IMG/VR virus record: IMGVR_UViG_3300037297_000328
DNA from: an uncultured virus (IMG/VR IMGVR_UViG_3300037297_000328)
Taxonomy: Duplodnaviria > Heunggongvirae > Uroviricota > Caudoviricetes
Length of the DNA stretch: 20,000 bases
Reading direction: 5' to 3' (one strand)
Below are positions 3,008 through 19,988 of the stretch, piece after piece. A model generated the notes under the pieces. That model worked only from the letters and a program-made list of their open reading frames with translations. It was not told the DNA's origin and ran no database searches. The translations under genes were made by a program, and so were the position numbers. How positions within the stretch are numbered: position 1 is the stretch's first letter; each line of letters begins with the position of its first letter.

Positions 3008-3859
3008 ATGGAAGAATTTAATAAGATTAAACAAAACACTGGAACATTCCTGTTGAATATGAAAAAATCTCCGTTGGATGACAGGGATTTTAAAGCTGAA
3101 ACTATCTATCCGGATCAGGTAGAGCTCCCAAAGAAACTTGACCTAAGACCTTATCTATACCCTGTGGTTAATCAGGGTGTTCAGGGTACGTGTAGTGCAC
3201 AAGTAGCAGCCTGTATGAAAGAATACCAGGAATATAAGTTACAGAAATTAACGGGCATTGAAGGTGATATGTCGCCTCAGTTTGTATACAATTTGCGCGA
3301 AGAGCCAGATTACGAAGGCATGACGCCGCGCGAAACAATGAAAATTTTGCAACAATATGGTATTTGCCGTGAAGCCATATATCCTTATAATACTATTGAA
3401 TACCCAATGTATATTTCGCAGGATGCCTATGCCGATGCACTTACTTTTCGTATTCAAAATTATGCACAAATCAATACAATTGATGCACTGAAAAAAGCAT
3501 TAGTAAAGGATGGTGTATGTTATATTTGTTTTCCAGTGTATAACTCAGGTATGCAAATGTGGAAGGCCGCACAGGGAGATATAGATATGGGTGGCCATGC
3601 GATGGCTGTAGTAGGCTATGATGACGACAAAGAACATTTTATCATTCGCAACTCATGGGGCGAAGATTGGGGTGATAATGGCTATACCTATTATCCGTAT
3701 GAAGATTTTGGGGCGCATTGGGAAATATGGGGTAGTGTGGACAAAGAGAGCGCATGGCCGGAATTTGATGTGAGTGAATATAAACAGCCTATTAAGGCAA
3801 GTCATTTACTTTGGATAGGTGCGGCAATATTGTTAATATATGTTTATGCAACTAAGTAA
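3008..3859 (+). CDS. Papain-like (peptidase C1) cysteine protease with C-terminal membrane anchor
   Basis: LPKKLDLR, NQGVQGTC (oxyanion Q and catalytic C), GGHAMAVVGYDD (H), IIRNSWGEDWGDNGY (N). C-terminal hydrophobic LLWIGAAILLIYVYATK. Confidence 0.92.
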   Translation: MEEFNKIKQNTGTFLLNMKKSPLDDRDFKAETIYPDQVELPKKLDLRPYLYPVVNQGVQGTCSAQVAACMKEYQEYKLQKLTGIEGDMSPQFVYNLREEPDYEGMTPRETMKILQQYGICREAIYPYNTIEYPMYISQDAYADALTFRIQNYAQINTIDALKKALVKDGVCYICFPVYNSGMQMWKAAQGDIDMGGHAMAVVGYDDDKEHFIIRNSWGEDWGDNGYTYYPYEDFGAHWEIWGSVDKESAWPEFDVSEYKQPIKASHLLWIGAAILLIYVYATK

Positions 3860-4789: not shown

Positions 4790-5014
4790 ATGGTATTAAA
4801 AACTAAATACAACATTGGCGATAAGATATGGTTTGTATCGCACAATATGGTAAATTCAGGACGTATTGATGCGGTAAGTGCTTCAGTAATTAAGAGGATA
4901 TCAGGGGTTTCATCTCGTGTATTTTATCGTATAGAAGGCACGCTTGTTGAAATAGATGAAAAATATGCATTTGAATCGAAAGAGGATTTGAAAAACGCCT
5001 TATTTTCTGAATAA
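4790..5014 (+). CDS. Small hypothetical phage protein (TKYNIGDKIWF; SH3/KOW-like pattern)
   Basis: 74 aa with a beta-rich pattern. Translationally coupled to the next gene. Confidence 0.65.
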   Translation: MVLKTKYNIGDKIWFVSHNMVNSGRIDAVSASVIKRISGVSSRVFYRIEGTLVEIDEKYAFESKEDLKNALFSE

Positions 5015-5709
5015 TGAAAAAAGTCCTGATAGCAACTCCAACCAGTACAAACAAAGACTATATTTTCCTTGACTGGTTTATCCATACCAGCAATTTTACT
5101 TATCCGAATAAAGAAATAATTATCTGCGATAATTCCCATGATATTACTTATCATGAGAAATTAAAAGCAATGGGTGTAAATTGCCTGTATGTGGCACCAA
5201 AAAGCCGGCGATCTCATGATTACATTACCGAGAGCCAAAACGTGCTCAGGGATTATTTTTTAAAAGGCAATTACGATTATTTTTTTTCATTAGAGGTCGA
5301 TATTTTTCCTCCGCGCAATATAATTGAGAAACTATTAACTGCAAATAAAAAGATAGTGGCGGCTCCTTATTTTTGGAATTTCGGAAAACAAAGCCAGGTG
5401 TTGTTGGTTTATTTCAGGCAAACCGGCGAAAAAGAATTTATTACCCATGAACCCGATTTTGCTGAAACCCTGCAGTTCTTCGATGGTAATGTAAATCAAA
5501 TTTACGAAAATGGTATTGGTTGCACATTAATTTCCCGGGAAATAATCGAAAAAATACCCTTTCGTGTTGAGTCCGGGAAACCTGGTTATTCTGATACTTA
5601 TTTTTATATCGATTTATTTAAGCTAGGATATAAAAACTGGATGGATACCAGCGTATTTTGTAAGCATTACAATAGCGATTGGGGCGGAATTATTGATAAT
5701 TATGTATAA
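5014..5709 (+). CDS. GT-A fold (GT2-like) glycosyltransferase
   Basis: N-terminal VLIATPT strand, IIICDNS, DYFFSLEVD (DxD-equivalent), GIGCTLISR, SDTYFY and C-terminal CKHY. Confidence 0.8.
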   Translation: MKKVLIATPTSTNKDYIFLDWFIHTSNFTYPNKEIIICDNSHDITYHEKLKAMGVNCLYVAPKSRRSHDYITESQNVLRDYFLKGNYDYFFSLEVDIFPPRNIIEKLLTANKKIVAAPYFWNFGKQSQVLLVYFRQTGEKEFITHEPDFAETLQFFDGNVNQIYENGIGCTLISREIIEKIPFRVESGKPGYSDTYFYIDLFKLGYKNWMDTSVFCKHYNSDWGGIIDNYV

Positions 5710-6015: not shown

Positions 6016-6047
6016 AACGCTGAGCTAAACAGCGTTTTAATGCTGTT
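6016..6047 (+). repeat. 32-bp hairpin-containing direct repeat, copy 1
   Basis: aacgctgagctaaacagcgttttaatgctgtt, with stem aacagc/gctgtt. One mismatch to 6691-6722. Confidence 0.85.
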
Positions 6048-6205
6048 TAAGGTATGAAAAGGATATATTAAATTTCAAGCAAGCAATCAAAGAAGTTAAA
6101 AGTGAGTGGGGTAAATTTTTGAATTTAAGCTAACGACTTTATTTATCTTATTTTCAACTACTTGCGATTTATTTCAAATAATCTTGAAAAAAAAACGATT
6201 AAATG

Positions 6206-6235
6206 TATTTTATATTAAAATAATGTTTATATTTG
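6206..6235 (+). promoter_or_regulatory. Bacteroidota-type promoter (-7 TATATTTG, 6228-6235) with an upstream palindrome (candidate operator)
   Basis: TAnnTTTG match. tatttta-tat-taaaata at 6206-6222. A-rich leader to ATG 6278. Confidence 0.6.
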
Positions 6236-6277
6236 TAGAGTCAAAAGCAATAAAGCAAAAACTTAAAAATTTTAAAA

Positions 6278-6508
6278 ATGGGAAAAATATTAACTTATGA
6301 TAAAGCTCGAAAAAGTGGCACAAAAATTATTGGTAAAAACACTAAAAAGTACCACGCTAAATTTATTGAAAGTACTAAAAATGGACAGGTTAGTATTTGG
6401 AAAATTAAAGGTGGTTATGCTGTTACAAGATTTTCAGATAGTTTTTCAACTATTTACAAAACAATTAGAGGTTGTAAAATGACTAAATTGTGGCAATTGC
6501 ATAAATAA
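6278..6508 (+). CDS. Hypothetical basic protein
   Basis: ATG after promoter and A-rich leader. 76 aa. Confidence 0.6.
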   Translation: MGKILTYDKARKSGTKIIGKNTKKYHAKFIESTKNGQVSIWKIKGGYAVTRFSDSFSTIYKTIRGCKMTKLWQLHK

Positions 6509-6509
6509 A

Positions 6510-6680
6510 ATGAAAAATACTCACGGAGGTAAAAGAAAAAACGTAGGAAGAAAACCTGTAATTGATAAAAAGTTACAGGTTTCTTTTTACATAGAACAAT
6601 CCAAGATTGAGAGATTTGGAGGATTGAAAGAATTTAAGGCTAAAATTATTGCTCACATCAATAAAGTTGCTGCGAAGTAA
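6510..6680 (+). CDS. Small putative DNA-binding protein (GGKRKNVGRKP motif, RHH-like remainder)
   Basis: MKNTHGGKRKNVGRKPVIDKKLQVSFYIEQSKIERFGGLKEFKAKIIAHINKVAAK*, 56 aa. Below the ORF-track cutoff. Confidence 0.7.
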   Translation: MKNTHGGKRKNVGRKPVIDKKLQVSFYIEQSKIERFGGLKEFKAKIIAHINKVAAK

Positions 6681-6690
6681 TATAGTGAAT

Positions 6691-6722
6691 AACACTGAGC
6701 TAAACAGCGTTTTAATGCTGTT
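6691..6722 (+). repeat. 32-bp hairpin-containing direct repeat, copy 2
   Basis: aacactgagctaaacagcgttttaatgctgtt. Confidence 0.85.
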
Positions 6723-6748
6723 ATATTTTGGTTTTTAAAATTTCAGCG

Positions 6749-7006
6749 ATGGCAAAAGAACAGCAAAAAATAAAAGCGTTTGTAACTGAATGGACAGATA
6801 AAACAGTTACATACAACTGCTTTGAAATAGGACAAACAAGATTCTCAGATTTGAAACCATTGTTTGATGGGATGAAATTATTTAAAGGGAAAAATATTTG
6901 GTTTGAAACCGAAATAATACCAGGAATAATGACAATAAAAAACAACGAAAGCAAGAAAAACCGTTTTATTCAGCTTTGGAATTACTACGTGCATGGGAAA
7001 TTTTAA
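6749..7006 (+). CDS. Hypothetical protein
   Basis: In-frame ATG at 6749 (MAKEQQK...) preferred over TTG 6728. Confidence 0.55.
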   Translation: MAKEQQKIKAFVTEWTDKTVTYNCFEIGQTRFSDLKPLFDGMKLFKGKNIWFETEIIPGIMTIKNNESKKNRFIQLWNYYVHGKF

Positions 7007-7837: not shown

Positions 7838-8428
7838 ATGGATTATAAACAAAGAATTGCCATGTATCATAATAAGGCAAACGGTGCGTACAATAACGCA
7901 AACGGTGGATTAGTCAGGGGGGCGCAAGCTCTTAATCCTGTCGATAGGACGTTGAGTGTTACACTTACTCCTATTTCAACTACTATTTCTGGTGCTGCTC
8001 GTATTTTTGGTGCTTTTGTCTCTCCTGATGAGACTTATAATACTGCCAATAACATGACAGTCGCTATATCTGAAAGTTCTCACATCCAGGTGAAAAAAGC
8101 TTCTGAAGCCAACCCGTTTAGGGTTAAAGGTGTTTTATACACCGTATCGAATGCTCTTCAGTTAGCTCAGCCTATTGTGATCACAAAGGCCAGCATAGCT
8201 GGTAGTTCTGAGATTGCCACTTGGCAGCCTCAAAATTACACTGCACCAACCAATTACAACGCTTTACAGATTAAAACATCTGCATTGCAGGCTGTGATTG
8301 ATGGTTACACCAGATTCGATATAAATTTTCTTGCGGGGTATAATGCGTCAATGATATTGACCATAAACGATAAGGTGGATCAGAGTTCACTATTATCTAA
8401 TAAGGTGCCTATCAAATCGGCAGAATAA
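7838..8428 (+). CDS. Candidate major capsid protein (single jelly-roll size, beta-rich)
   Basis: 196 aa, soluble, rich in A/S/T/N, with alternating beta-strand patterns. Heads the structural block and is followed by a strong terminator. Homologous to the termini of 12929..14641. Confidence 0.6.
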   Translation: MDYKQRIAMYHNKANGAYNNANGGLVRGAQALNPVDRTLSVTLTPISTTISGAARIFGAFVSPDETYNTANNMTVAISESSHIQVKKASEANPFRVKGVLYTVSNALQLAQPIVITKASIAGSSEIATWQPQNYTAPTNYNALQIKTSALQAVIDGYTRFDINFLAGYNASMILTINDKVDQSSLLSNKVPIKSAE

Positions 8429-8452
8429 ATCCTGTATTCCAATAATCATTTT

Positions 8453-8490
8453 AAGACGGGTTGGGAAAGTCCCAGGCCCGTCTTTTTTTT
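8453..8490 (+). terminator. Intrinsic terminator after the candidate MCP
   Basis: aagacggg-ttggga-aag-tcccag-g-cccgtctt stem running into a T8 tract. Confidence 0.85.
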
Positions 8491-8503
8491 AAATGCTCCT
8501 TTT

Positions 8504-8893
8504 ATGGATGATGAAAAAATACTTTGGACTGAATATATAGCAAGAAATAATCCTGATGCATTAAACTACTTGTTGGAGCAATATGGCTATTTACGTGCAT
8601 ACAGTCTGGAAGAAAGGTTGACCGCAATAGATACCTTGCAGCAAGAATATGGACACGAAGCAACAATCAATCTATTGCGCATCCATCCCGATTATGAGAT
8701 GATAGTTGAAGACAATGAACAACTTAACCCGCCAAAAGAAATAATAAAAGAGGTTGAAGTTCAGCAACCTCAAGTACAGGTAAGTGATCCTGTAAAAGTA
8801 AGTGTTGATAATGGATTTCATAATACATTAAAGGATGTATTACTGATTATTGGTGCTATTTGGCTCGTAAAAATAATAATATCAAAAGATTAG
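8504..8893 (+). CDS. Putative virion membrane protein (helical N-domain, C-terminal TM)
   Basis: C-terminal VLLIIGAIWLVKIII. Confidence 0.75.
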   Translation: MDDEKILWTEYIARNNPDALNYLLEQYGYLRAYSLEERLTAIDTLQQEYGHEATINLLRIHPDYEMIVEDNEQLNPPKEIIKEVEVQQPQVQVSDPVKVSVDNGFHNTLKDVLLIIGAIWLVKIIISKD

Positions 8894-9366
8894 TGAAAGT
8901 AAATAATAAAATAATACAGCGAGCAGTTGCTCAGTCAATAGTAAGGGATACGCCCGACTTAATAAAGTTGGTGAAAAAATATAAGCCTGTTGATGATAAT
9001 ATAAGTTTGCTCGATTTATTATTTGATGTTCAATATTTGCTCGAAAATGATAGAAAATTTGCAGCAGAATACACAAATTTTCTTTTACAGAAAAAAAGAC
9101 TTATCAATTATAATAGTGCAACAGGTTTGCTTGCCGGGGTTACTAATTTAATAGGCTCTGTTGTAAATTCAAGCACCCAAAAAAAAGAGCAACAATTAGA
9201 GTATTCGAAGCTTAGTTCTCAGAATACTCAGCAATTAATGCAATTTATGATGCAGGAGGAGCAAGCGCAGCTTGAAAAGGAGAAACAAAAAACAAATATT
9301 ATATATATAGCAATAGGTTCATTCGTATTGCTGACAGGAATTGTAATTTTTGCTAAAAAAATGTAA
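8893..9366 (+). CDS. Putative virion membrane protein (YNSATG motif, Gln-rich coil, C-terminal TM)
   Basis: GTG 8893 overlaps the upstream TAG. TM IIYIAIGSFVLLTGIVIFA followed by KK. Confidence 0.75.
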   Translation: MKVNNKIIQRAVAQSIVRDTPDLIKLVKKYKPVDDNISLLDLLFDVQYLLENDRKFAAEYTNFLLQKKRLINYNSATGLLAGVTNLIGSVVNSSTQKKEQQLEYSKLSSQNTQQLMQFMMQEEQAQLEKEKQKTNIIYIAIGSFVLLTGIVIFAKKM

Positions 9367-9368
9367 AA

Positions 9369-9626
9369 ATGTGTTGTAATAATGCAAATGGAGACATATT
9401 AAGCGGTATTGGCGATTTATTTATCTCTGATGAACAAAAAAAATTAAATGAATCGTACTTGCAGGATGCTGAATTGGAAAGGCAAAAGACAGAAGCCATG
9501 ATAGAATATCTTAGTAAGCGAAAGGCTTTGGCCGGTTCGCCAAGTGCCGGGATGGATCAGCAGACATTAATTGTTCTTGGAGGTGTTGGCGTATTAGCCG
9601 TATTTGTTATAATAATGATGACATAA
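9369..9626 (+). CDS. Small C-terminally anchored protein (NNANGD motif)
   Basis: TM LIVLGGVGVLAVFVIIMM. Confidence 0.75.
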   Translation: MCCNNANGDILSGIGDLFISDEQKKLNESYLQDAELERQKTEAMIEYLSKRKALAGSPSAGMDQQTLIVLGGVGVLAVFVIIMMT

Positions 9627-9637
9627 ATAAGAATACT

Positions 9638-10219
9638 ATGAAAGGTGATGTTTTTTCAGCAACAAGCTATTATATGCCAGGCAATCAATGGAATTTTGCA
9701 GAAGGAGATATTTTCTCGGCAATAGGAGATATAATGGAGCCGTGCGAACTTGATCTGCCTTATCCTGACTCACGTTTGCAAATGCTGCGGGATACTGTTG
9801 AATTAAGGCGTGAAACGTGGGCGCAGGCGAAAGCTGCAAGGGATATTGCGTACAAGGATTGGGCCGATTGTAAGCGAAAACTATTTTGCAATGCAGGACC
9901 AAAAAATTCAACATTGAATGCCCGCGAAGGCGAAGAAGAAGCTGCGCGCGTTGCGCTTGAGTCTGCCGAGAAAAACCTTTCGCAGGCTGTGGCTGCTAAT
10001 GAGGATGCCGAGGATGATTATCGTTTTTGTGTCGATCAGTACGCGAGGATCATGAGCCAGCAATCAAAAATTGAGAGTGAAGAGCAAAAACTGGATATTG
10101 AAGAACAAAAAGTCTCAACAGTAAAACTTGAAACCAGTAAGGATTATGCCAAATATGGCCTTATCGGACTGGGTGTTGCGGGATTATTTGTATTTGGTTA
10201 TTTAATTTTTAAAAAATAA
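9638..10219 (+). CDS. Coiled-coil protein with C-terminal TM (KGDVFSAT and FAEGD motifs)
   Basis: A/E-rich heptads. TM YGLIGLGVAGLFVFGYLIF followed by KK. Confidence 0.8.
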   Translation: MKGDVFSATSYYMPGNQWNFAEGDIFSAIGDIMEPCELDLPYPDSRLQMLRDTVELRRETWAQAKAARDIAYKDWADCKRKLFCNAGPKNSTLNAREGEEEAARVALESAEKNLSQAVAANEDAEDDYRFCVDQYARIMSQQSKIESEEQKLDIEEQKVSTVKLETSKDYAKYGLIGLGVAGLFVFGYLIFKK

Positions 10220-10230
10220 AAGCTAAAAAA

Positions 10231-10395
10231 ATGGCAAAGAAAAAATCATTAAAAGTGTATAGAGATTACACTAAGACGCATAAAAACCAAAAGGCTGCCA
10301 AAAGTCATGCCGCAAGAATACGAAAGCGTGGAGGAATGGTATCTGTAGAAAAAACTTCTGCGGGATACAGGGTAAGGTCATCATATAAAAAATAG
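10231..10395 (+). CDS. Small highly basic protein
   Basis: MAKKKSLKVYRDYTKTHKNQKAAKSHAARIRKRGGMVSVEKTSAGYRVRSSYKK*, 54 aa. Fills the gap between neighbours. Not in the ORF track. Confidence 0.7.
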   Translation: MAKKKSLKVYRDYTKTHKNQKAAKSHAARIRKRGGMVSVEKTSAGYRVRSSYKK

Positions 10396-10400
10396 AAGTC

Positions 10401-10640
10401 ATGGGAATGATGTATGTTGAGGATCCTAATAAATACTTTAATATTCCTTATATAGAGTATTTACAAAGTACTGTAGGCGATACCGGTGAGCAATTGCTTG
10501 AAGAAAAAGAGACAGAAATTGCACAGCGCAATGTCGAGGTGGGCGCTTCGAATATAGGCAAAACGCCGTTTATTATACTTGGTCTGGCAGTAATAGGATT
10601 GGTTACGATTGTGATTTTAAAAAAGAAAAAAATAATTTGA
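10401..10640 (+). CDS. Small C-terminally anchored membrane protein
   Basis: TM FIILGLAVIGLVTIVIL followed by KKKK. Confidence 0.75.
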   Translation: MGMMYVEDPNKYFNIPYIEYLQSTVGDTGEQLLEEKETEIAQRNVEVGASNIGKTPFIILGLAVIGLVTIVILKKKKII

Positions 10641-10641
10641 G

Positions 10642-11358
10642 ATGAAATCAAGTAGAAAAATAGGAATATTCATTTTTGGGTTAGGCATAGCTGGCATAGC
10701 GGTTGCAACTTATTTTTTATTAAAAAAAGAAAAAAAAGCTAAAGTTGCGATACCTGTTCAGGATAGTGATATGCTATCCGGGGAAAAAGAGAATATTTCC
10801 GAAAGCTCTATTGATAACACCCAAACTTCAACAGATACTAAGCCTGTAGAAGTTAGACATATGACTATGTATGATATTCCTCGTCCAACTTGGTATACGC
10901 AGGAAATGGAGAAGAAATTCAGAAATAGTTATCAGGGTTACATGAGTGGCGGCGATGCCATGAAGCAAAAATACAAAGACTGGATTGCTAAGTGGCCTGG
11001 CGAAGCCTTTAGAGTAGATACTTTTGACGATTATTGTATTGAAAGTGCATTGCAGGATATTCATGCTGCATTTAGTCTTAATTTTCTGCAACTATCTGAA
11101 TTAAGAAGGTTCTATGGCGTAGGCCGCGACCGCTTGTTGCCTAAAGACCCCGAACAACCTAAGCCTGAGTGGCTGAATAAAAATGATATGGAATACCATA
11201 TGTGGTGGTATTTTAACTATTACTACAATGAACAAAACTACGGTGGAATAAAAGAGTCGTTTTATAAAGGATTGGATCAGATGGCTCACGACAATGGGAT
11301 AAATATGTCTGATATTGAAGACGCAAAACAATATTACAGTACTTCACAGGTAATTTAA
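10642..11358 (+). CDS. N-terminally anchored membrane protein of unknown function
   Basis: TM IGIFIFGLGIAGIAVATYFLL followed by KKEKK. Aromatic-rich C-domain with a possible internal duplication (PRPTWYTQEME / PKPEWLNKNDME). Confidence 0.75.
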   Translation: MKSSRKIGIFIFGLGIAGIAVATYFLLKKEKKAKVAIPVQDSDMLSGEKENISESSIDNTQTSTDTKPVEVRHMTMYDIPRPTWYTQEMEKKFRNSYQGYMSGGDAMKQKYKDWIAKWPGEAFRVDTFDDYCIESALQDIHAAFSLNFLQLSELRRFYGVGRDRLLPKDPEQPKPEWLNKNDMEYHMWWYFNYYYNEQNYGGIKESFYKGLDQMAHDNGINMSDIEDAKQYYSTSQVI

Positions 11359-11360
11359 GC

Positions 11361-11630
11361 GTGATGAAAAAAAGAACAAAATACGGATTATTTATAATAG
11401 CTGTCTTCGCGATTGGTGTTTACTTTATAGCCAGAAAAAGGCGGGTGAAAATGCAGACAGTAGCGCCTGTAAAGATTAAAGAAGATAGTGAGGACGAATT
11501 AATAGAAATAGAAGAAAGACATCCTATTGATTTTTTGCCGCCTGAAGATATTATAAAGGATATGCCTCTTGGTGATAATACAGAGGAAAGGCCTTCTATT
11601 GATTTATTTCTGCCTGATGAAATTAATTAA
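11361..11630 (+). CDS. Small N-anchored membrane protein with an acidic, Pro-rich tail
   Basis: TM YGLFIIAVFAIGVYFIA followed by RKRR. Confidence 0.7.
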   Translation: MMKKRTKYGLFIIAVFAIGVYFIARKRRVKMQTVAPVKIKEDSEDELIEIEERHPIDFLPPEDIIKDMPLGDNTEERPSIDLFLPDEIN

Positions 11631-11695
11631 AAAAGAGACAATAATTAAAATAGAAGAGATATACTTTTTGAAGAATCATATAAATAAATATTATA

Positions 11696-12187
11696 ATGAA
11701 AAAAAAGGCAATGAACGCCAAAGGCGATGTGTTTAACGCCAAAGGCGATGTGTTTAACGCCAAAGGCGATGTGTTTAACGCCAAAGGCGATGTGTTTAAC
11801 GCTACCAAAATAACACCTTCTTTCTATCATAAGGCAAATCCATTGTTAGGAAAAACACAGGCTGAAATTGATGTAATTTATGCGTCAAAACCTTACGATG
11901 CCGATTATTATGATTGGCTGGATAACTATTATGAGCCTGAAACTGCAACGCAGGACAAGAATAGGTTTTATACAACTATTTCCGACATCCTTGGACTAAC
12001 GGACAAGGCAGTGGATATCAAAAATAAATTTGAGACCGGTACTACAGTTAATGAAGGACCTGTATCAATGGATATGCAATTAGGTGGTGAAGAAAGGAAA
12101 GGTAAAAATACCATCTGGTATGTGCTTGGAGGAATGGTTGTCGTTCTTGTTGTTGTTGGTGTAGTTGCATCGCGTAAAAAGAAATAA
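11696..12187 (+). CDS. C-terminally anchored protein with N-terminal (NAKGDVF)x4 repeat
   Basis: TM IWYVLGGMVVVLVVVGVVA followed by SRKKK. Confidence 0.8.
   Translation: MKKKAMNAKGDVFNAKGDVFNAKGDVFNAKGDVFNATKITPSFYHKANPLLGKTQAEIDVIYASKPYDADYYDWLDNYYEPETATQDKNRFYTTISDILGLTDKAVDIKNKFETGTTVNEGPVSMDMQLGGEERKGKNTIWYVLGGMVVVLVVVGVVASRKKK
11714..11802 (+). repeat. Perfect 21-bp tandem repeat x4 plus a partial copy (aacgccaaaggcgatgtgttt)
   Basis: Units start at 11714, 11735, 11756 and 11777. In frame, no spacers. Confidence 0.95.
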
Positions 12188-12915
12188 TGCGATTTTTTGT
12201 TATTACAAATAATAAAAAAAAAGTTATTGAGCTTGACATACTTACCAAAGGCAACAAGATAGGTGTAATTGGTCATGATGTTGATAAGCCTAATACAGAA
12301 TATTTTAACCGGATGGTGGTGAAAGACGGAACTTATACGTTTAATCTTCCACAATCTCCGAAAGTACTAAAAGTTATCGTTCTTGAAGTTAATGAAGGAG
12401 ACACGGATGAATCAGATAAATATGAAATCACTGGTTTTAGATATGCTGATTTGCCTAAGCAAGCACTAATTACTGACCAGTATACATCCGAATTTATCAA
12501 GTTTGCTCAGGAGTTTTCGGCAATGGCAGGTTATCTGCCACCTAATGATTATTACAGCGATAATCGTAATTTTATGATACGGTTATTACCAGAAATCAGG
12601 GAAGATCCAAAAACTCCATCGAGAATACACACCGAAACAGGTGTGATTGAAGTGTCTAAGAAATGGTTTGATGGCATGACGGTGCCTGGCAGGATGGCTA
12701 TTTTGCAGCACGAATTTGCACATAATAATTTGAACAATAGCTACAAGAATAATAATGAAACAGAAAAAGAAGCAGATGAAAACGCTCTACAAATATATTT
12801 GGCATTGGGTTATCCAAAAGTGGAATGGATGTATGCATGGACGCACATTTTCGAGGATCACGAGTCTCATTTTGATAGGTTGGATAATAGTAATGCCATG
12901 TTGCAAGGACTGTAA
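12187..12915 (+). CDS. Zincin (HExxH) metalloprotease-like protein, M48-like motif spacing
   Basis: RMAILQHEFAH followed by ETEKEADENALQIYLALGYP. Beta-rich N-terminal domain. Confidence 0.75.
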   Translation: MRFFVITNNKKKVIELDILTKGNKIGVIGHDVDKPNTEYFNRMVVKDGTYTFNLPQSPKVLKVIVLEVNEGDTDESDKYEITGFRYADLPKQALITDQYTSEFIKFAQEFSAMAGYLPPNDYYSDNRNFMIRLLPEIREDPKTPSRIHTETGVIEVSKKWFDGMTVPGRMAILQHEFAHNNLNNSYKNNNETEKEADENALQIYLALGYPKVEWMYAWTHIFEDHESHFDRLDNSNAMLQGL

Positions 12916-12928
12916 TTATGATATACTT

Positions 12929-14641
12929 ATGAAGGATTGTGGATTAATAAATCTGACATTTAATAATCCTACTAGCGAAAGCCAGTTGGTTAAAATTCTT
13001 GATGTGCTTAATCCTGATGGCGGTGCAACGACATATACTAGTGCCGGAAAAATATTTAATACTACAGAGGGCTCTGGAAACGGATCACAATTACCTACAG
13101 TCAATTTGCTTAAAGATTATTACTATGATAATACGAATAATATTCTTTATGTAGCTACTTCTTCAGGTATATGGGTATATGATATTAATACTGATACAGG
13201 AAGTATAATTAATACTTCTACAGGTGTCACCGGAGATAATTTACCGAATAACGATATTGTTGCAATAGCAAAAGACATCACAAATAATGTATTATACGCC
13301 GGATCACAAATTTCACCAGGCGTGATAGTGCTATGGAAGTATGACATGGATGCAGGGTCTGGATTAATCTATAATGCTACAGGAGGAGTAAGTGGAGGCG
13401 ATAACCTGACTTCGAATACATTACGTGGCATTACATTGAATGGTGACGATACTTTAGTATACGTGTCTGGTCCTACATTTATCTGGTCATTGACGATAAG
13501 TACAAATGTTGGTTCTGACATATCTCCTGCTACCGGCGATCCTGTTCCTTCTGGTCTTGGAAATAACGGAAAAATCTACTACGATTCACAAAATAATTTT
13601 TTGTGGGTTGGACTGCTCGAGTCCGGTTTATACCGATACGATATTTCACTTTCAGATGGCAAATTATATACAACAGTTACAGGTGTTGGAAGTGGGGAAC
13701 AATTGCCCTCAGATGCAAACTACAGGCCAACACAAAAGAATAATATAATATACGTTCCGACAGGCCGGGGTATTTGGGTGTATGACATAGGCACAGATAC
13801 AGGAAGCATTATAGATGATAGTGCTTCTGTAAATGGAGACCCGCTCCCCTCTCCAAGCACAAGCATTGTCAAGTCTGTATTTTATGATGCCGAAAATGAT
13901 AAGTTATGGGCGGGCATAAGAAACACTAAATATCAAATATGGTCTTACGATTTTGCGACCAATACAGGTGCAATTATTGATTCTGCTGACAGTGGCGATG
14001 TATTGCCTTCCCTTCCTGCCAGCGTTGGCATAGTCCTTTACGCAGATGGTTCGTTGTATAATATAATAAGAGAAGGTGGAGGTATTTGGAAATATACCGT
14101 AAGTAGTGTAAGCGCCATTATTATCACGGGTAATGATGGGAACTCAATATCTGATTATAGCGAAATTGTAAATTCTGTAAAAACAAACCCACTAGAAATA
14201 AACCGTATTGTATTTAAGAGTAATAATGCAGCTCAAATTGCTAATATTTTAACCGCAAAATTACGCACGATTACAGGATATGAAGAACAATATACCATTA
14301 ATTTTTCAGATTATGTAGATCCTCTATTGCCTTATCATACCGTACATATTGATTTACCTGAGCCAATATTAATTGATATTAATAATTTCATGCAGATGTC
14401 AATTAATGCAAATACGTACGTGAATTTTATTTTTGAATTTTGCCAGGTTAATTATAATGCAATGCTGGATAATGATTGGATTAATAAAGGTTTTATTGGA
14501 CCGCCTATAAGTGGAGGGTTTGGAGACGAAGGAATTGTGCCAATACAAGCCTCAATAGTTTCATCTAAAAAGTGCGGTTGGCTTTGTTGGATTATTATTA
14601 TTGCTGGTGGTTATCTACTATATAAATATTATAAAAAATAA
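12929..14641 (+). CDS. Candidate spike/vertex protein: capsid-like domain with an inserted 7-blade beta-propeller and C-terminal TM
   Basis: True start is probably ATG 12929 (MKDCGLINLTF). Seven repeats of about 50 aa (G-D/E-x-LP...D..NN.LW/Y.G...GIW.YD). The C-domain aligns with 7838..8428. TM WLCWIIIIAGGYLLY followed by KYYKK. Confidence 0.75.
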   Translation: MKDCGLINLTFNNPTSESQLVKILDVLNPDGGATTYTSAGKIFNTTEGSGNGSQLPTVNLLKDYYYDNTNNILYVATSSGIWVYDINTDTGSIINTSTGVTGDNLPNNDIVAIAKDITNNVLYAGSQISPGVIVLWKYDMDAGSGLIYNATGGVSGGDNLTSNTLRGITLNGDDTLVYVSGPTFIWSLTISTNVGSDISPATGDPVPSGLGNNGKIYYDSQNNFLWVGLLESGLYRYDISLSDGKLYTTVTGVGSGEQLPSDANYRPTQKNNIIYVPTGRGIWVYDIGTDTGSIIDDSASVNGDPLPSPSTSIVKSVFYDAENDKLWAGIRNTKYQIWSYDFATNTGAIIDSADSGDVLPSLPASVGIVLYADGSLYNIIREGGGIWKYTVSSVSAIIITGNDGNSISDYSEIVNSVKTNPLEINRIVFKSNNAAQIANILTAKLRTITGYEEQYTINFSDYVDPLLPYHTVHIDLPEPILIDINNFMQMSINANTYVNFIFEFCQVNYNAMLDNDWINKGFIGPPISGGFGDEGIVPIQASIVSSKKCGWLCWIIIIAGGYLLYKYYKK

Positions 14642-14644
14642 AAA

Positions 14645-15349
14645 ATGAAAGTAAACAGAAATCTCACAAAAGGCTTAATATTAGGTGCCGCAATAACTGG
14701 CCTTATTTTGTACATGCGAATGCGTGAAAAAAATAAAGCGCTTGAGGAAAGTTATAATGAACAGTTAAATTTACTACAACAAGAAGATATGACCGGTTCT
14801 GAAACTGCTAATAAAAACGAAGAGTTTATTGAGCTTGGAGATGAATGTATATTGATTGGAGATTTAAAAGCTACATTTAATTCATGGTTAGGCAATCAGC
14901 GCATGGACACAAATGACTTATATGACGCTGTAACACGTGATATTTTTAAAAAGGTAATGGAAAATACTACACACATTATGCAGGAGGATGATAGTCTACG
15001 CAAAATGATGATATATGACATTGTAAAAACCAATGCAAATATTGTAGATGCTGATTTGCCTCCATATCCGCTAAAATATGAATATACGCAAGGTATGGTG
15101 GCATTGGGCGATAAAGGCGGAAGTGTTGCCGACCTGCAAAAATTAATAAATATGCTGTATAAGTACTATTACCCTGTGACGGAAAAACAAATATCTGTAA
15201 ATAGCACTTACGATAAAATAACTGCGGCTGCGGCTGTAAAATTATTTGCCGGAACTTCGGCATTAATTGACGAGGATAAAGCGGCTGTAAGCAAAGAATT
15301 TGTGGCCAATATGACCACAATGATTAACAATTTAAAAGTAATTAACTAA
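14645..15349 (+). CDS. N-anchored protein with peptidoglycan-binding (PG_binding_1-like) domain(s)
   Basis: TM LILGAAITGLILYM. LGDKGGSVADLQKLIN...VNSTYDKITAAA, with a degenerate earlier copy LGDECILIGDLKATFN...TNDLYDAVT. Confidence 0.6.
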   Translation: MKVNRNLTKGLILGAAITGLILYMRMREKNKALEESYNEQLNLLQQEDMTGSETANKNEEFIELGDECILIGDLKATFNSWLGNQRMDTNDLYDAVTRDIFKKVMENTTHIMQEDDSLRKMMIYDIVKTNANIVDADLPPYPLKYEYTQGMVALGDKGGSVADLQKLINMLYKYYYPVTEKQISVNSTYDKITAAAAVKLFAGTSALIDEDKAAVSKEFVANMTTMINNLKVIN

Positions 15350-15361
15350 AAAAGTAGAAAA

Positions 15362-15604
15362 ATGAGAGTAAATCCGAAAAAAGACGTTATGAGGTCTGCA
15401 ACTGGCGAAACAGTACCTGTTCCAACAACAAATACTGTTGTTAGTGAAAAAAAATTCTCTTTATCGAATACAACTGATAAAATGGGAATCACTACTGCAG
15501 GTTCAATCGCAAAAGGTTTTATCTGGGGCTTGGTAATTGGCGCCGGAACTCTACTTGCCATTGGCATGTGGAAAGATAAAATAAATATAAGCTACAACAA
15601 GTAG
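15362..15604 (+). CDS. Small membrane protein (RSATGE motif, C-proximal TM)
   Basis: TM FIWGLVIGAGTLLAIGMW. Confidence 0.7.
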   Translation: MRVNPKKDVMRSATGETVPVPTTNTVVSEKKFSLSNTTDKMGITTAGSIAKGFIWGLVIGAGTLLAIGMWKDKINISYNK

Positions 15605-15639
15605 ATGTAGCCCAGTGCTACATCCTACTTATTGTAGGG
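15601..15639. terminator. Intergenic hairpin (possible terminator or processing site)
   Basis: gatgtagc-ccagt-gctacatc, plus an adjacent cctac-ttatt-gtagg. No immediate U-tract. Confidence 0.35.
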
Positions 15640-15674
15640 TCTGATTTTTAAAAAATCAATTAAAGTATTGCATT

Positions 15675-17369
15675 ATGAATGATATTTTGGACAATATTAA
15701 TCCACATGTGCTAGAATACCAAAGCGCGACTGGCAGAATAGCAGAAATTCTAATTATAGAAACTGCTCCAAATGTTTTTTCCGCTCCCGTAGAATCAACG
15801 TTAGGAGACTGGGCTAATGAAGAAGGCTTTGACAAAGCTGTTATAACATGGAGACACAAATATGCTGCAGATGGAAACGGATGGGTTAAATACGTTTCGG
15901 GAAATTGGGTAGATACAATACTTACAATTCCGGCAGAGAAGTTTCCTATAATAATTGAAACGTTTTATCAGCTAAGGGATGCTTATTTGTCTCAAATATC
16001 ATTGATTACTCAAAATGTAAGTGGATCGTTAAATCCTTCTTCCGGGTATTTTATTGATAGTTTGCTGAATGCTATTGTTGCAAAAAAACCGGCAAATATA
16101 CAATACAATATTACTGTTACTGATATGCCTGGTGACAATTTAAATTTTGTTGTCCCGGCAATGGAAAATAAAAATGCATTTGCCTATTTTAGTGAAGCAT
16201 ACGAAGCTTATATGGCATCATATGTATATCCTACAGAAACATTTAACCTGAATTTCACAGGCAGTTCATATGAAAATGATGTGTATACGATTAAATCAGG
16301 ATACAACAGGAATCAAACATTAATTATCAATGTTTCAAACCTATTGCCTGATGGTAGTGTTTTAAGTTTTCAAATACCTCCTTTTGATGCACCTAGTTAT
16401 AATGCATACTTGCAGGCGGCATACGAAGATTTTATGTCTTCATATGTATATCCTACAGAAACATTTAATTTGGTGTATGGAAGTTCTAATTACGATAACA
16501 ATGTTAACGTAATTATGAACAACTATAATCGAAATCAGTCGCTTATTATTAATGTCGAAGGCGTTATCCCGGAAAGTCAGCAAGTGTTAACATTTGAAAT
16601 ACCTCCTTATCAATCACCAAATTACGATCAGTATTTTCAGGCGGCATACGATGAAGCTATGCAAAATTATGAATTTCCAAAATTATACATCAATATTAAC
16701 GGTGCCGCATCAACATATAGTGCCGAGGTTGACAAATTAATTGATAAGTATGGCGACAGAAATGGGGCTATTGAGATAACTGTGGAAGGAGTATTGCCTG
16801 ATGGTAGTGTGTTAACATTCACCATACCTGCTTTGGATATGGCAAATTATGATGAATATTTTCAATTAGCGTATGATGCATGGATGAGCGGTTATGATGA
16901 TGGTTCAAGTGAAGTTACTACCGGTGATGATTCAGGTAGTCCGCTCAGCGAGGAAACAATAAATGAAATTACCACTACAGCCGAAGAGATTATATCAAGT
17001 GGTGACGATGTTGTTATTTCAGGAGAGGATAAGTTAAGCGAAATAGTAGGCGATGAATTGGTTGGTACATTAAGTAGCGGCATACTTGGCGGTGGCGGCG
17101 GAGGAGGTTTTATGACCACCGATGAAGAAGGAAATATCGTAACTGCCGATGGCGGTTTTGTTGCTGTGCCAAAGGGACTAAGAATAACAGGATATATTTA
17201 TCCTTACTTATTCTTGTTTATTACACTTGCGGGCGGGGCAATCGGCTTTTTTGTCGCAAAAAGATACAAGCAGCAAACACCTGCTATGTTAGCATTAATA
17301 GCAGCCGGGTTAATGGGCGGATCGGCTGTAGGAATGAAGGTAAAACCGCCTGTAAAGGTGCCAAAATAA
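15675..17369 (+). CDS. Large repeat protein: 4-5 tandem ~74-aa alpha/beta domains, acidic/Gly linker, two C-terminal TMs
   Basis: Repeats YVYPTETFNL...YNRNQ.LIINV...P...VL.F.IPP...Y..Y.QAAY...M. Identical 29-nt DNA at 16218 and 16440. GGGGGGG linker. Confidence 0.8.
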   Translation: MNDILDNINPHVLEYQSATGRIAEILIIETAPNVFSAPVESTLGDWANEEGFDKAVITWRHKYAADGNGWVKYVSGNWVDTILTIPAEKFPIIIETFYQLRDAYLSQISLITQNVSGSLNPSSGYFIDSLLNAIVAKKPANIQYNITVTDMPGDNLNFVVPAMENKNAFAYFSEAYEAYMASYVYPTETFNLNFTGSSYENDVYTIKSGYNRNQTLIINVSNLLPDGSVLSFQIPPFDAPSYNAYLQAAYEDFMSSYVYPTETFNLVYGSSNYDNNVNVIMNNYNRNQSLIINVEGVIPESQQVLTFEIPPYQSPNYDQYFQAAYDEAMQNYEFPKLYININGAASTYSAEVDKLIDKYGDRNGAIEITVEGVLPDGSVLTFTIPALDMANYDEYFQLAYDAWMSGYDDGSSEVTTGDDSGSPLSEETINEITTTAEEIISSGDDVVISGEDKLSEIVGDELVGTLSSGILGGGGGGGFMTTDEEGNIVTADGGFVAVPKGLRITGYIYPYLFLFITLAGGAIGFFVAKRYKQQTPAMLALIAAGLMGGSAVGMKVKPPVKVPK

Positions 17370-17914: not shown

Positions 17915-18558
17915 TGGCTGTTAAATCAAATACCGTTCGAATACGTACAACCGGCTCTAATATGGGCTTGTTTCGTATCGTGTTAATCAGCAGTATCGGA
18001 ATAATTTCGATTATTTTATTAATTAAATTAATAAGAAAAGGACGTGCTGTATCAAGTGCTAATCGCGCCGATACCGATGTTAATGTACAGTTAGCTACAA
18101 TGCTTAATAGCGCAATTCATCCTGCCAGATCATTTGTGGGCGACCTTTTTACAGGCGCCGATAAATCTGAACTTTTTTCACTGGCAAAACAAATCAATAA
18201 GCAGGGCAATTTTCACGATGTTGCTACAGAATATTACAGGCTGTATGAAGAGTCGCTTACTCACGAAGTACAAGATGCACTTGGTCGGGACTATCAACAA
18301 TTTCTAAACATTATCTCTGGCGAAGGGATAACTCCTACGACAGCGAATAACCTGGCAAAAAAACTGTATGACGCATATAAAGGATTGACAGGACTTTTTG
18401 TATACGTGTCTTCTAATGAAGTAGCTACCATTCAGGAATATACAAGATTGACTGATAGTGATCAACAAATTGTTCAAGCTGCATATAATAGTATGTACAA
18501 TAGAAATTTAGCTTCTGATTTAATGGAGGTCGCAGATGATTTAACACCATTTTATTAA
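17914..18558 (+). CDS. N-anchored protein with two annexin-like repeats
   Basis: LATMLNSA...GADKSELF...VATEYYRLYEESLTHEV and LAKKLYDAYKG...SNEVATI...VQAAYNSMYNRNLASDL resemble the annexin pattern A..L..A.KG.GTDE...I...Y...Y...L..DI. Confidence 0.55.
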   Translation: MAVKSNTVRIRTTGSNMGLFRIVLISSIGIISIILLIKLIRKGRAVSSANRADTDVNVQLATMLNSAIHPARSFVGDLFTGADKSELFSLAKQINKQGNFHDVATEYYRLYEESLTHEVQDALGRDYQQFLNIISGEGITPTTANNLAKKLYDAYKGLTGLFVYVSSNEVATIQEYTRLTDSDQQIVQAAYNSMYNRNLASDLMEVADDLTPFY

Positions 18559-19190
18559 TGAAAGTAGATTTTAAACATATTGGTGGTGAAATCAAGGGAT
18601 TAATAAAAGACCATCCTCAATTGGCTATAATATTAGCAATAAGTACACCTGTGGCCATATTCGCCGGATGGTATTACTGGAGGCGTAAAAGTAGGATTGT
18701 GCGAACGGCAAAGAAATTTATAGGGCAGGAAGAAATCCGGAATAATATGGGCTTTATCGATGCCGAATTTCAGAAAATGATAAGTCAGTATGGTGATTAT
18801 ATGGCAGGCAACCAGTGGTGCATGAGTTTTGCAAAAGCGGTATGGTTATTAACTTTTGGGAAGAAATACCAGGCACAGCTTGATGAGTTATTAACCCCAA
18901 GCACGATTACCACCTGGACAAACTTTGAAAATGATAAGAGCGGTGATTTTAAGACCTCTGATAAACCAAGCCGGGGTGCGATAGTAATTTGGCAGCAACA
19001 TGTTAATGGTGCGCCACAATGGAAGGGCCATGCCGGTATTGTGCAAAAATGGAACAACGAAGAATTCCAGACTATTGAGGGAAATACCGCAGCCATACAA
19101 GGAATTGACCGTGTAGCTGAAAAAATACATACTTATAAATGGGATGTAAACAATGGCTTGAGATTAAAAGGATTTATAAGCGTAAATTAG
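18558..19190 (+). CDS. CHAP-domain peptidoglycan hydrolase with N-terminal signal-anchor
   Basis: AKKFIGQEE, QWCMSF (Cys), PSRGAIVIW, GHAGIV (His), TIEGNT. TM LAIILAISTPVAIFAGWYYW followed by RRK. Confidence 0.88.
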   Translation: MKVDFKHIGGEIKGLIKDHPQLAIILAISTPVAIFAGWYYWRRKSRIVRTAKKFIGQEEIRNNMGFIDAEFQKMISQYGDYMAGNQWCMSFAKAVWLLTFGKKYQAQLDELLTPSTITTWTNFENDKSGDFKTSDKPSRGAIVIWQQHVNGAPQWKGHAGIVQKWNNEEFQTIEGNTAAIQGIDRVAEKIHTYKWDVNNGLRLKGFISVN

Positions 19191-19406: not shown

Positions 19407-19988
19407 ATGAAATTTGACGATAAAAAAATATGGATATTTGGAGGGATTAGCCTGGCTATTTCTGCGGCTTTATTTTACTGGTATTACAAGAAAAAAGCTA
19501 AACCATCTGTAAGCGCAAGTAATGTTGATAAAACTATCCATGATGAAGGTTTTAACCCGGCTATACTTGAAAAGAAAGACAATACTTTTGTTTCGCCGAA
19601 TGTCACGGCCAGCTTGAATAATATTTCAGATGAACCGGTCGGTTTACAAAAAAATACGGTTTCTTCAGATATAAATAAACCTGATGCTTATAATCCTTTC
19701 GGGCTAGTTACCGAAACAACTATCGGAGACATTGTGATAACAGCGCCATGCACCAAATGGACAGACAATAACTTCCCATTAATGAAATGCATGAAAGGAA
19801 ACGATGTTTCTCAGTTGCAGAAGATTATTAATAAAATGTATGCTTCTAAAATAGGTATGACAGTAAAAGAGGACGGCTACTTTGGGCCACAGATGGAAAT
19901 GGCCGTAAAAGCGGCGTTTGGTGTCTCCCAAATAAGCTACATGGAATTTTTAAAAATTAAACTGAAATATGACTCTACATACTATTAA
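19407..19988 (+). CDS. N-anchored protein with a C-terminal PG_binding_1-like domain
   Basis: TM IWIFGGISLAISAALFYWYY followed by KKK. FPLMKCMKGNDVSQLQKIIN...EDGYFGPQMEMAV. Confidence 0.75.
   Translation: MKFDDKKIWIFGGISLAISAALFYWYYKKKAKPSVSASNVDKTIHDEGFNPAILEKKDNTFVSPNVTASLNNISDEPVGLQKNTVSSDINKPDAYNPFGLVTETTIGDIVITAPCTKWTDNNFPLMKCMKGNDVSQLQKIINKMYASKIGMTVKEDGYFGPQMEMAVKAAFGVSQISYMEFLKIKLKYDSTYY

Follow-up and report, generated by a model that had tools for sequence, protein, structure and literature searches.

In phage T4, the capsid targeting sequence is an N-terminal peptide that forms the only common part of otherwise unrelated internal proteins and directs them into the assembling particle (PMC3012670). 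In adenovirus, N-terminal peptides of different virion proteins are found in a single pocket, with pVI and pVII competing for it within the hexon cavity, on the inner face of a jelly-roll capsomer (10.1101/857581). For the membrane-containing phages PRD1 and PR772, a structural paper describes a small jelly-roll protein (P31) and a spike (P5) that share a homologous jelly roll, and a membrane protein that ties the shell to the membrane, with P16 of PR772 anchoring the vertex (PMC6750898). Here we describe a short peptide tag, x-A-x-G(D), in an uncultured virus (IMG/VR IMGVR_UViG_3300037297_000328), analysed over a window of 20 kb (20,000 nucleotides (nt)) from a contig of ~72.8 kb, where the tag recurs in a 196-amino-acid (aa) capsid-type protein with a predicted single jelly roll (7838..8428, + strand) and in membrane proteins anchored by a C-terminal helix. 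We tentatively favour, at somewhat short of an even chance, the view that it is a conserved tag for virion assembly and most probably acts as a docking peptide.

The window resembles each of these systems and departs from each. As in T4, three of its tail-anchored proteins, which we name by their start coordinates (9369, 9638 and 11696), share only the tag, and it lies within their first 40 aa. The T4 tag attaches to the scaffolding core, and the prohead protease cuts it off; T4 itself is tailed, with an HK97-fold head and no membrane, whereas here the shell protein is a predicted jelly roll, the carriers are tail-anchored proteins plus the capsid protein itself, and the tag can be tandem. No HK97-fold head, scaffolding core or prohead serine protease was matched by Pfam or PHROG in the 20-kb window. 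Adenoviruses carry short Gly-containing consensus sites, (M/I/L)XGX-G, in many virion proteins and have demonstrated cleavage by adenain, a clan CE protease, while the only clear peptidase here belongs to the papain family; unlike in adenovirus, the shell protein is itself tagged and the carriers are membrane-anchored. With PRD1 and PR772, the window has in common that the 7838 protein and a second, spike-like protein (12929-14641) share a predicted jelly roll. No short shared tag is described for those phages, no sequence similarity to them is detectable, and the genome here is ~73 kb against ~15 kb. The adenovirus fibre tail motif, which docks on the penton base, and the cargo-loading peptides of encapsulins are further docking codes for a shell; encapsulin tags are mostly C-terminal, sit on soluble cargo, and have sequences and folds unrelated to this tag. 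A full-text literature search found no published description of such a tag in membrane-containing phages, and in a 2019 review of these phages the terms 'protease', 'cleav' and 'proteolytic' never occur (PMC6356626). Peptide tags as such are known; what would be new here is an assembly- or maturation-type tag on tail-anchored membrane proteins and on the jelly-roll protein itself.

Across the 37 proteins of the window (6133 aa), the core of the tag reads A-x-G-D and its fuller form Phi-x-[N/S]-A-x-G-D-[IV]-[FL]. The initial annotation had proposed the peptide as a virus-wide maturation-cleavage or docking signal, and every string that it quoted was recovered in place. Counts were compared with within-protein shuffles of the 37 proteins, using patterns that were all picked after viewing the data, so that conservation in homologs is the more telling test. 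A.GD occurs at 11 sites in 7 proteins against 1.5 expected, and [NS]A.G within the first 40 aa at 9 sites in 6 proteins against 0.64; neither count was reached in any of 2000 shuffles. With the capsid protein excluded, Phi.[NS]A.G still occurs at 9 sites in 7 proteins (1.1 expected, 0 of 1000 shuffles), so the shuffled controls place the tighter patterns beyond chance. Bare A.G is only weakly telling when taken alone (40 sites against 25.8 expected, reached in 4 of 2000 shuffles), and many of its sites fall in membrane helices. Tag codons vary from gene to gene, which locates the likeness at the protein level and rules out a shared DNA element, with the exception of a perfect 21-bp repeat within the 11696 gene.

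The conservation of the tag is best documented in the capsid-type protein. Its copy YNNANGG (nt 7889-7909, with YNNANG at residues 18-23) directly follows an N-terminal helix of residues 3-17. The 15 close homologs (55-76% identity) all carry [FY]-x-N-[AV]-x-G near residues 18-23, and nine of them have NAxGD. N20 and G23 are invariant in these sequences and A21 is present in 14 of 15, while the flanks vary. The upstream copy HNKANG (residues 11-16, nt 7868-7885) is not kept among the same 15. Two tandem copies are frequent in capsid homologs. The helix ahead of the tag is conserved too, with Y3 and Y10 kept in at least 90%, and in a 20-member alignment at 26-60% identity N20 is likewise kept in at least 90%, matching the core strand residues.

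The same signal extends through the wider family. A profile search of 1.84 billion representatives returned 184 clusters at 50% identity with an expectation value (E) of <= 1e-3, 84 of them at <= 1e-10; judged by sequence, this is a large uncultured group of 200-250-aa proteins. The pattern was counted in 143 proteins kept among the 150 matches listed of the 184 clusters, seven having been dropped for a length outside 150-360 aa or an odd start residue. Phi-x-N-x-x-G lies within the first 80 aa of 76 of these 143 representatives, against 22.5 +/- 4.3 after shuffling (maximum 37 in 500 shuffles), and the remainder of the same proteins holds 22 such sites over 21,010 residues. The family logo reads A(-4)...[F 62%, Y 24%]-x-N-[A 27%, F 24%, Y 23%]-x-G-[D 19%, G, S, E] at a median position of 18, and N-x-x-G-[DE] was found 50 times in the first 80 residues against four times later (164 proteins). 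One member, P0027, has the N-terminal tag and a second, extended copy, NNASGDIFANG, in a C-terminal extension (residues 228-240). Distant members (P0041, P0043, P0045, P0053, P0057 and others) have long, extremely acidic inserts rich in Asp, Glu and Tyr between the tag region and the jelly roll. P0110 (2097 aa) was rejected as a member, being an unrelated repeat protein that matches only profile positions 18-68.

The strongest membrane-protein carriers lie downstream of the capsid gene. The 85-aa tail-anchored protein at 9369..9626 starts MCCNNANGDILSGIGDLF and has CNNANGDIL at residues 3-11 (nt 9375-9401), followed by a second, GDLF-containing copy at nt 9405-9422. The 193-aa tail-anchored protein at 9638..10219 begins with MKGDVFSAT (residues 1-9, nt 9638-9664) and continues with NFAEGDIFSAIGDIM at residues 19-33 (nt 9692-9736). 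In its family, comprising three database homologs and one from a relative contig described below, one to four tag copies precede a conserved PYP-containing domain, and several members begin M-[KY]-G-D-[VI]-F. The 163-aa tail-anchored protein at 11696..12187 has four tandem NAKGDVF heptads (nt 11711-11806), encoded by the perfect 21-bp tandem repeat at 11714-11802 (4.2 copies, 100% match). Its family has nine members at 31-54% identity, with an N-terminal tandem [x]-A-x-G-D-[VIF]-[FV] and a C-terminal membrane helix with a basic tail. All nine have tandem heptads, in three to eight copies and with differing codons, and the 7-residue period is exact in most of them; this spread in copy number suggests that array length changes by slippage. 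A start-adjacent half-motif, M-K-G-D-[VI]-F at the initiator Met, recurs in the 9638 family, the 11696 family and the protein at 16851 of the relative contig. BLASTP found no similarity among 9369, 9638 and 11696 outside the tag, which rules them out as paralogs and indicates that the tag was kept or acquired independently of the remainder of each protein.

The initial annotation had counted at least seven tagged virion proteins. We recognize four robust carrier families, namely the 196-aa capsid protein and the tail-anchored proteins 9369, 9638 and 11696, together with three tentative carriers. The latter are a tail-anchored protein with a GTG start (8893..9366), whose YNSATG is internal (nt 9109-9126), an 80-aa C-anchored protein (15362..15604) with MRSATGE at residues 10-16 (nt 15389-15409), and a 564-aa C-anchored protein (15675..17369) that starts MNDIL and has YQSATG at residues 15-20 (nt 15717-15734). 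One further string, YNATGG (13370-13387) in the open reading frame (ORF) at 12755, is a chance match and is absent from the relative contig.

A metagenome scan recovered only two contigs, L002 (1 kb) and L003, and the latter is the sole long relative compared, through 18,953 bases of a 46.9-kb metagenome contig. Its gene order is that of the window, and its capsid homolog, 50% identical, carries FKNANGA. The L003 homolog of 9369 starts MTCCNNSIGDWF, that of 9638 has four tag copies, and that of 11696 has eight GD[IV] units spaced 6-9 residues apart. The three tentative carriers fare less well: YNSATG of 8893 aligns with YNSTKNADGE and is partly kept, MRSATGE of 15362 aligns with KKAEGT so that only A-x-G is kept, and YQSATG of 15675 has no clear counterpart, the L003 homolog starting MKGDITG in an N-terminal alignment that is unreliable. 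L003 also encodes, at 221-1859, a DNA methyltransferase-like gene followed by a tyrosine recombinase/integrase-like gene, both judged from their translations alone and hinting at a temperate lifestyle. The claim of a virus-wide tag under selection thus holds up, in that the tag is kept in homologs at 26-76% identity, in one topological class and in a syntenic relative.

The carriers are restricted in topology. Anchor classes were taken from a hydropathy scan, with 12755, 14645, 17516 and 19407 reassigned by eye, giving 11 C-anchored and 8 N-anchored proteins in the window and leaving the remainder unanchored. Of the 11 C-anchored proteins, 5 carry the tag within their first 40 aa, compared with none of the 25 other non-capsid proteins (Fisher p = 0.0012), in agreement with the proposal that it is limited to the capsid and C-anchored proteins and missing from the N-anchored ones. 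Its absence from N-anchored proteins is partly trivial, since their N-terminus is not free; its absence from soluble proteins is not trivial. In the model of PRD1 assembly, the side of the host membrane that faced the cytoplasm ends up facing the shell in the viral membrane. If that model applies here, the N-termini of the tail-anchored proteins, the peptidase domain described below and the inner face of the shell would share one compartment.

The capsid-type protein has no Pfam, PHROG or NCBIfam match, and its assignment comes from modelling. An AlphaFold2 (AF2) model built on 126 aligned sequences has a predicted local distance difference test score (pLDDT) of 93.6 and a predicted template modelling (pTM) score of 0.82, with a helix at 3-17 and a beta-sandwich at 38-180. 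It replaced an earlier 15-sequence model with pLDDT 60.4 and weak fold matches, and a look-up in the ESM Atlas was uninformative, the Atlas model being poor (pLDDT 0.32). The tag falls in the only lower-confidence stretch (pLDDT ~68 at residues 11-30 against 93-98 elsewhere), which fits an arm that becomes ordered only in assembly. Foldseek of the model against the PDB gave nothing at E <= 1e-3, and its weak list consisted mostly of jelly-roll capsid proteins. VIA-align against 48,161 chains ranked PR772 6q5u_O first (124 residues, Z 6.1, root-mean-square deviation 3.3, 98 aligned), and also returned the FLiP capsid 5oac_A (Z 5.5), PM2 P1 2w0c_L (Z 4.6) and SPV1 6oj0_Z (Z 4.6); all matches lie below Z 8, with non-viral sandwiches (Ena pili, nucleoplasmin) interleaved. 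From its length of 124 residues we take 6q5u_O to be the N-terminal base of P5, which was modelled over residues 1-124 (PMC6750898). The protein had been annotated as a candidate major capsid protein; a jelly-roll capsid-type protein is a reasonable assignment on the model, whereas the major role is not settled, the best structural match being a vertex (penton-base) domain, and a major shell protein and a vertex protein are both possible.

A second protein may build on the same fold. The capsid-family profile, run against the 37 window proteins, matches residues 466-562 of the 12755 ORF (nt 14150-14440; E 4.4e-16, 50.3 bits), whose true start is probably 12929. The resulting 570-aa C-anchored product (12929..14641) is repeat-rich and propeller-like over its N-terminal two-thirds, its C-terminal segment is homologous to the capsid jelly roll, and the whole resembles a spike or vertex protein derived from the capsid fold, much as P5 relates to P31 in PR772. 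Longer database proteins, P0157 (585 aa) and P0160 (791 aa), match the same region of the capsid profile.

Two encoded proteins have been considered as readers of the tag. The first, at 3008..3859, is a papain-family (C1) cysteine peptidase with a C-terminal membrane anchor, and its annotation as a protease is secure (PF00112, E 4.1e-18, 66.7 bits against a cutoff of 20.7, residues 40-228), with the catalytic Gln, Cys, His and Asn visible in QGVQGTC, GGHAM and IIRNSWG. Being tail-anchored itself, it would share the membrane face of the tags. It belongs to the papain family, unlike the adenain/Ulp1-type enzymes that recognize the Gly motifs cited in the initial annotation (adenovirus, poxvirus AG|X, ASFV GG|X); Pfam found no clan CE (adenain/Ulp1-like) protease among the 37 proteins of these 20 of ~73 kb, only Peptidase_C1 and CHAP. 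The peptidase was not found in the 18,953-base part of L003. Its closest viral-contig relative (48% identity) lies at 6044-6835 of a 6.8-kb contig, L004, whose main gene is a long RNA polymerase subunit with apparent intein-like inserts, giant-virus-like; this kinship points to an exchange of genes, or to a common gene pool, among viruses of very different kinds.

The second is a 242-aa soluble protein at 12187..12915, directly downstream of the 11696 array gene, and the two genes abut in both the window and L003. It had been called an HExxH protease, and its HEFAH is indeed invariant between the window and L003 (49% identity), so that a zincin is possible. The protease assignment found less support: the protein has no Pfam match at E <= 5 and no PDB sequence match to a peptidase, and its weak structural neighbours in the ESM Atlas are M48/M78/U49 peptidases at TM 0.40-0.45. 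It falls in virus-labelled Atlas clusters (68-147 members, TM 0.89-0.90), none with a Pfam family, and is an unnamed viral protein family.

Taken together, we favour a docking tag, along the following lines. The capsid tag would sit in a flexible arm between the N-terminal helix and the beta-sandwich, while in the membrane proteins it would occupy the extreme N-terminus of a variable-length leader, in one to eight copies, with the sole membrane helix far towards the C-terminus. The tail-anchored N-termini and the capsid N-arm would then lie in one compartment, between the inner membrane and the shell. All tags could plug into one common site, most simply the site on the jelly-roll lattice that normally takes the N-arm of a neighbour; docking there would both bring the membrane proteins into the particle and hold the membrane against the shell, and tandem arrays would bind multivalently and with avidity. 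The tail-anchored C1 peptidase might trim the tags afterwards, a step that this reading does not require. Variable copy number and spacing of the arrays, half-motifs at the Met, the conserved capsid helix and the flexible arm all speak for a short linear binding motif, and the start-adjacent M-K-G-D-[VI]-F is what one would expect of a binding epitope, not of a site for cutting. Close homologs of the capsid protein have the five-position core NAxGD in common with two membrane-protein families unrelated to it, in the window and in L003, and the F-x-N-x-x-G of the 9638 family agrees with the wider capsid logo. A more specific version, which we regard as possible but doubtful, is a general tethering code by mimicry of the capsid arm, used throughout a large, undescribed lineage of big tailless viruses: the anchors would copy the N-arm peptide and plug lattice sites, copy number (1 to 8) would set how many capsomers are gripped, the same contact would both select and fasten, and the papain-like peptidase may release the contacts when the particle matures or enters a cell.

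Several observations weigh against the docking tag. The receptor site on the jelly-roll lattice is a guess, and the capsid protein may be a vertex protein and not the major one, as its best match on the model, the PR772 P5 base at Z 6.1, would have it. The orientation of the tail-anchored proteins is inferred by analogy with the PRD1 assembly model. The strict pattern in L003 gives 8 sites in only 2 non-capsid proteins, a protein count that 155 of 1000 shuffles reach, and three of the seven window carriers are degenerate there. The capsid-family-only expression Phi.N[AFYLVI].G occurs in 5 of the other window proteins against 2.9 expected (140 of 1000 shuffles), not significant by protein count, so the identity of the capsid tag with the membrane-protein tag depends mainly on the NAxGD of the close homologs. 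In the arrays, A, G and D are fixed but the Asn position accepts N, K, S, H, G, R or E, although Asn is the most conserved position in the capsid family. Given these two mismatches, what the proteins share is most fairly put as x-A-x-G(D), the minimal definition of the initial annotation. Cleavage also stays in play, since a C1 peptidase is tail-anchored on the membrane face that the tags would occupy. A complex prediction of two copies of the capsid core (residues 28-196, 126-row alignment) with residues 1-45 of 11696 (9-row alignment) scored 0.01 against a mark of 0.32; it was run without controls and counts neither way.

Maturation cleavage, by the C1 peptidase (3008-3859) or the HExxH protein (12187-12915), is the alternative that survives best, and we consider it unlikely but serious. 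The tag would then be a site whose cutting removes N-terminal leaders as the particle matures, in the manner of adenovirus, poxviruses, ASFV or T4, an event that could also follow docking; the T4 targeting sequence is a docking tag and a cleaved leader at once. A short Gly-containing consensus near the N-termini of several virion proteins, kept in homologs, is what such a system would look like, and the intact papain-family peptidase is anchored in the same way as its putative substrates. Papain-family enzymes prefer a hydrophobic P2, a position that the conserved hydrophobic or aromatic residue 2-3 positions ahead of the Ala might suit. The tag-bearing leaders vary in length ahead of conserved domains, as propeptides do, and in both genomes the HExxH gene abuts the array gene. 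The architecture of the carriers argues otherwise: tandem arrays at 7-residue spacing would be chopped into heptapeptides, motifs starting at residue 2-3 leave almost nothing to remove, and the capsid helix that would be discarded is itself conserved (Y3 and Y10, as above). Nor do the enzymes fit well, with no clan CE protease in the Pfam scan of the 37 proteins and no peptidase family match for the HExxH protein.

An improbable alternative is that the tag is a self-contained structural element without a common reader, arising by convergence: in the capsid it would be a helix C-cap or hinge, and in the membrane proteins a repeat that alternates a D-V-F strand with an N-A-K-G turn, perhaps forming a small beta-meander or a turn that binds cations. 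The logo places A at -4, F/Y at 0 and N-x-x-G where the predicted helix 3-17 ends; Asn, Gly and Asp are residues typical of turns and caps; and the exact 7-residue period in most 11696 homologs suggests a repeat fold. However, a regular solenoid would hardly show the 6-9-residue spacing of the L003 array, none of the Pfam repeat families gives a match, and convergence would have to account for NAxGD identity across the capsid and two unrelated families, where composition predicts ~0.1 occurrences per 6000 aa.

More improbable still is a modification sequon, in which the conserved Asn or Ser would accept a glycan from a virus-encoded cytoplasmic glycosyltransferase and the arrays would allow multi-site modification. 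The Asn is invariant in the capsid family, N and S alternate at one position among the window carriers, and a glycosyltransferase-like gene, relevant only to this explanation, is kept in both genomes (5014..5709 in the window; 4251-4949 in L003, which has a further weak GT-D-like match). There is also a precedent, in that chlorovirus Vp54 bears N-glycans on Asn residues that lie outside the usual sequon (PMC5408694). The enzyme matches are weak, however (PHROG E 0.0037; Pfam Anp1 E 0.0018, below cutoff), with no NCBIfam or PDB match to the protein. In the arrays it is the N position that is least conserved while A, G and D are fixed, and the space between shell and membrane would be an unusual place for a glycan.

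That the tag has no special function, reflecting chance plus a recent slippage repeat or the shared ancestry of small tail-anchored paralogs, is very improbable and is largely refuted for the four core families. In its favour, the patterns were defined post hoc, the loose A-x-G turns up often (40 sites), the 21-bp repeat must be recent given its 100% identity, and conservation is weak in three of the seven carriers. Against it, no shuffle attains the counts observed with the tighter patterns, the tag is kept down to 26% identity while its flanks vary, arrays occur in 9 of 9 family members with differing codons and copy numbers, and a jelly-roll capsid protein is no paralog of the anchors. Asn-dependent self-cleavage, which in nodaviruses acts at N|A, was set aside, given the tag on many unrelated proteins and the varying array Asn.

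The rest of the window is in keeping with an unusual virus. All credible genes are on the + strand, upstream regions are A-rich, and no Shine-Dalgarno sequences were seen upstream of genes in the window. Pfam and PHROG scans gave few known-family matches among the 37 proteins; they include a Zot/FtsK-like P-loop ATPase (1430-2362), a CHAP-domain protein (18558-19190) and a peptidoglycan-binding-domain protein (19407-19988). The latter two each have an N-terminal membrane anchor and could be particle-borne wall-degrading entry enzymes, a role that points to a bacterial host. Two small, very basic, Lys/Arg-rich proteins at 2387-2620 (77 aa) and 10231-10395 (54 aa) may be DNA-condensing or core proteins, and the tail-anchored proteins also carry basic tails (RKKK, KK) past the membrane helix. 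From 8.5 kb on, one small protein follows another, each with one membrane helix placed either at its far C-terminal end or at the N-terminus, and no tailed-phage head, portal or tail genes were seen in the 20-kb window of the ~73-kb contig. Judged from these 20 of ~73 kb, the source is apparently a tailless, membrane-containing bacterial virus. Searching 50,697 phage records by tblastn with the ATPase, the capsid candidate and the HExxH protein gave no matches, viral-contig scans with the capsid protein, alignments A1, A2 and A4 and the peptidase returned no true relative, and no integrated copy was found with the capsid alignment in 185,579 species genomes. One contig, L001, was rejected as a relative, the match being spurious and on a high-GC tailed-phage contig. 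The deeper alignments A3 and A5 diverged too far to be used in a pattern scan.

How internal-membrane viruses select their membrane proteins and fasten the vesicle to the shell is poorly understood, even in PRD1. If the docking tag proves true, a portable peptide code common to the shell and its membrane partners would be a simple and directly testable answer; should the tag instead be cut by a protease, membrane-containing phages would have their first described maturation-cleavage system. A true tag could also become a tool for loading foreign proteins into such particles, and it would help to pick out virion proteins in the many uncultured genomes of the lineage, across its 184 capsid-family clusters.

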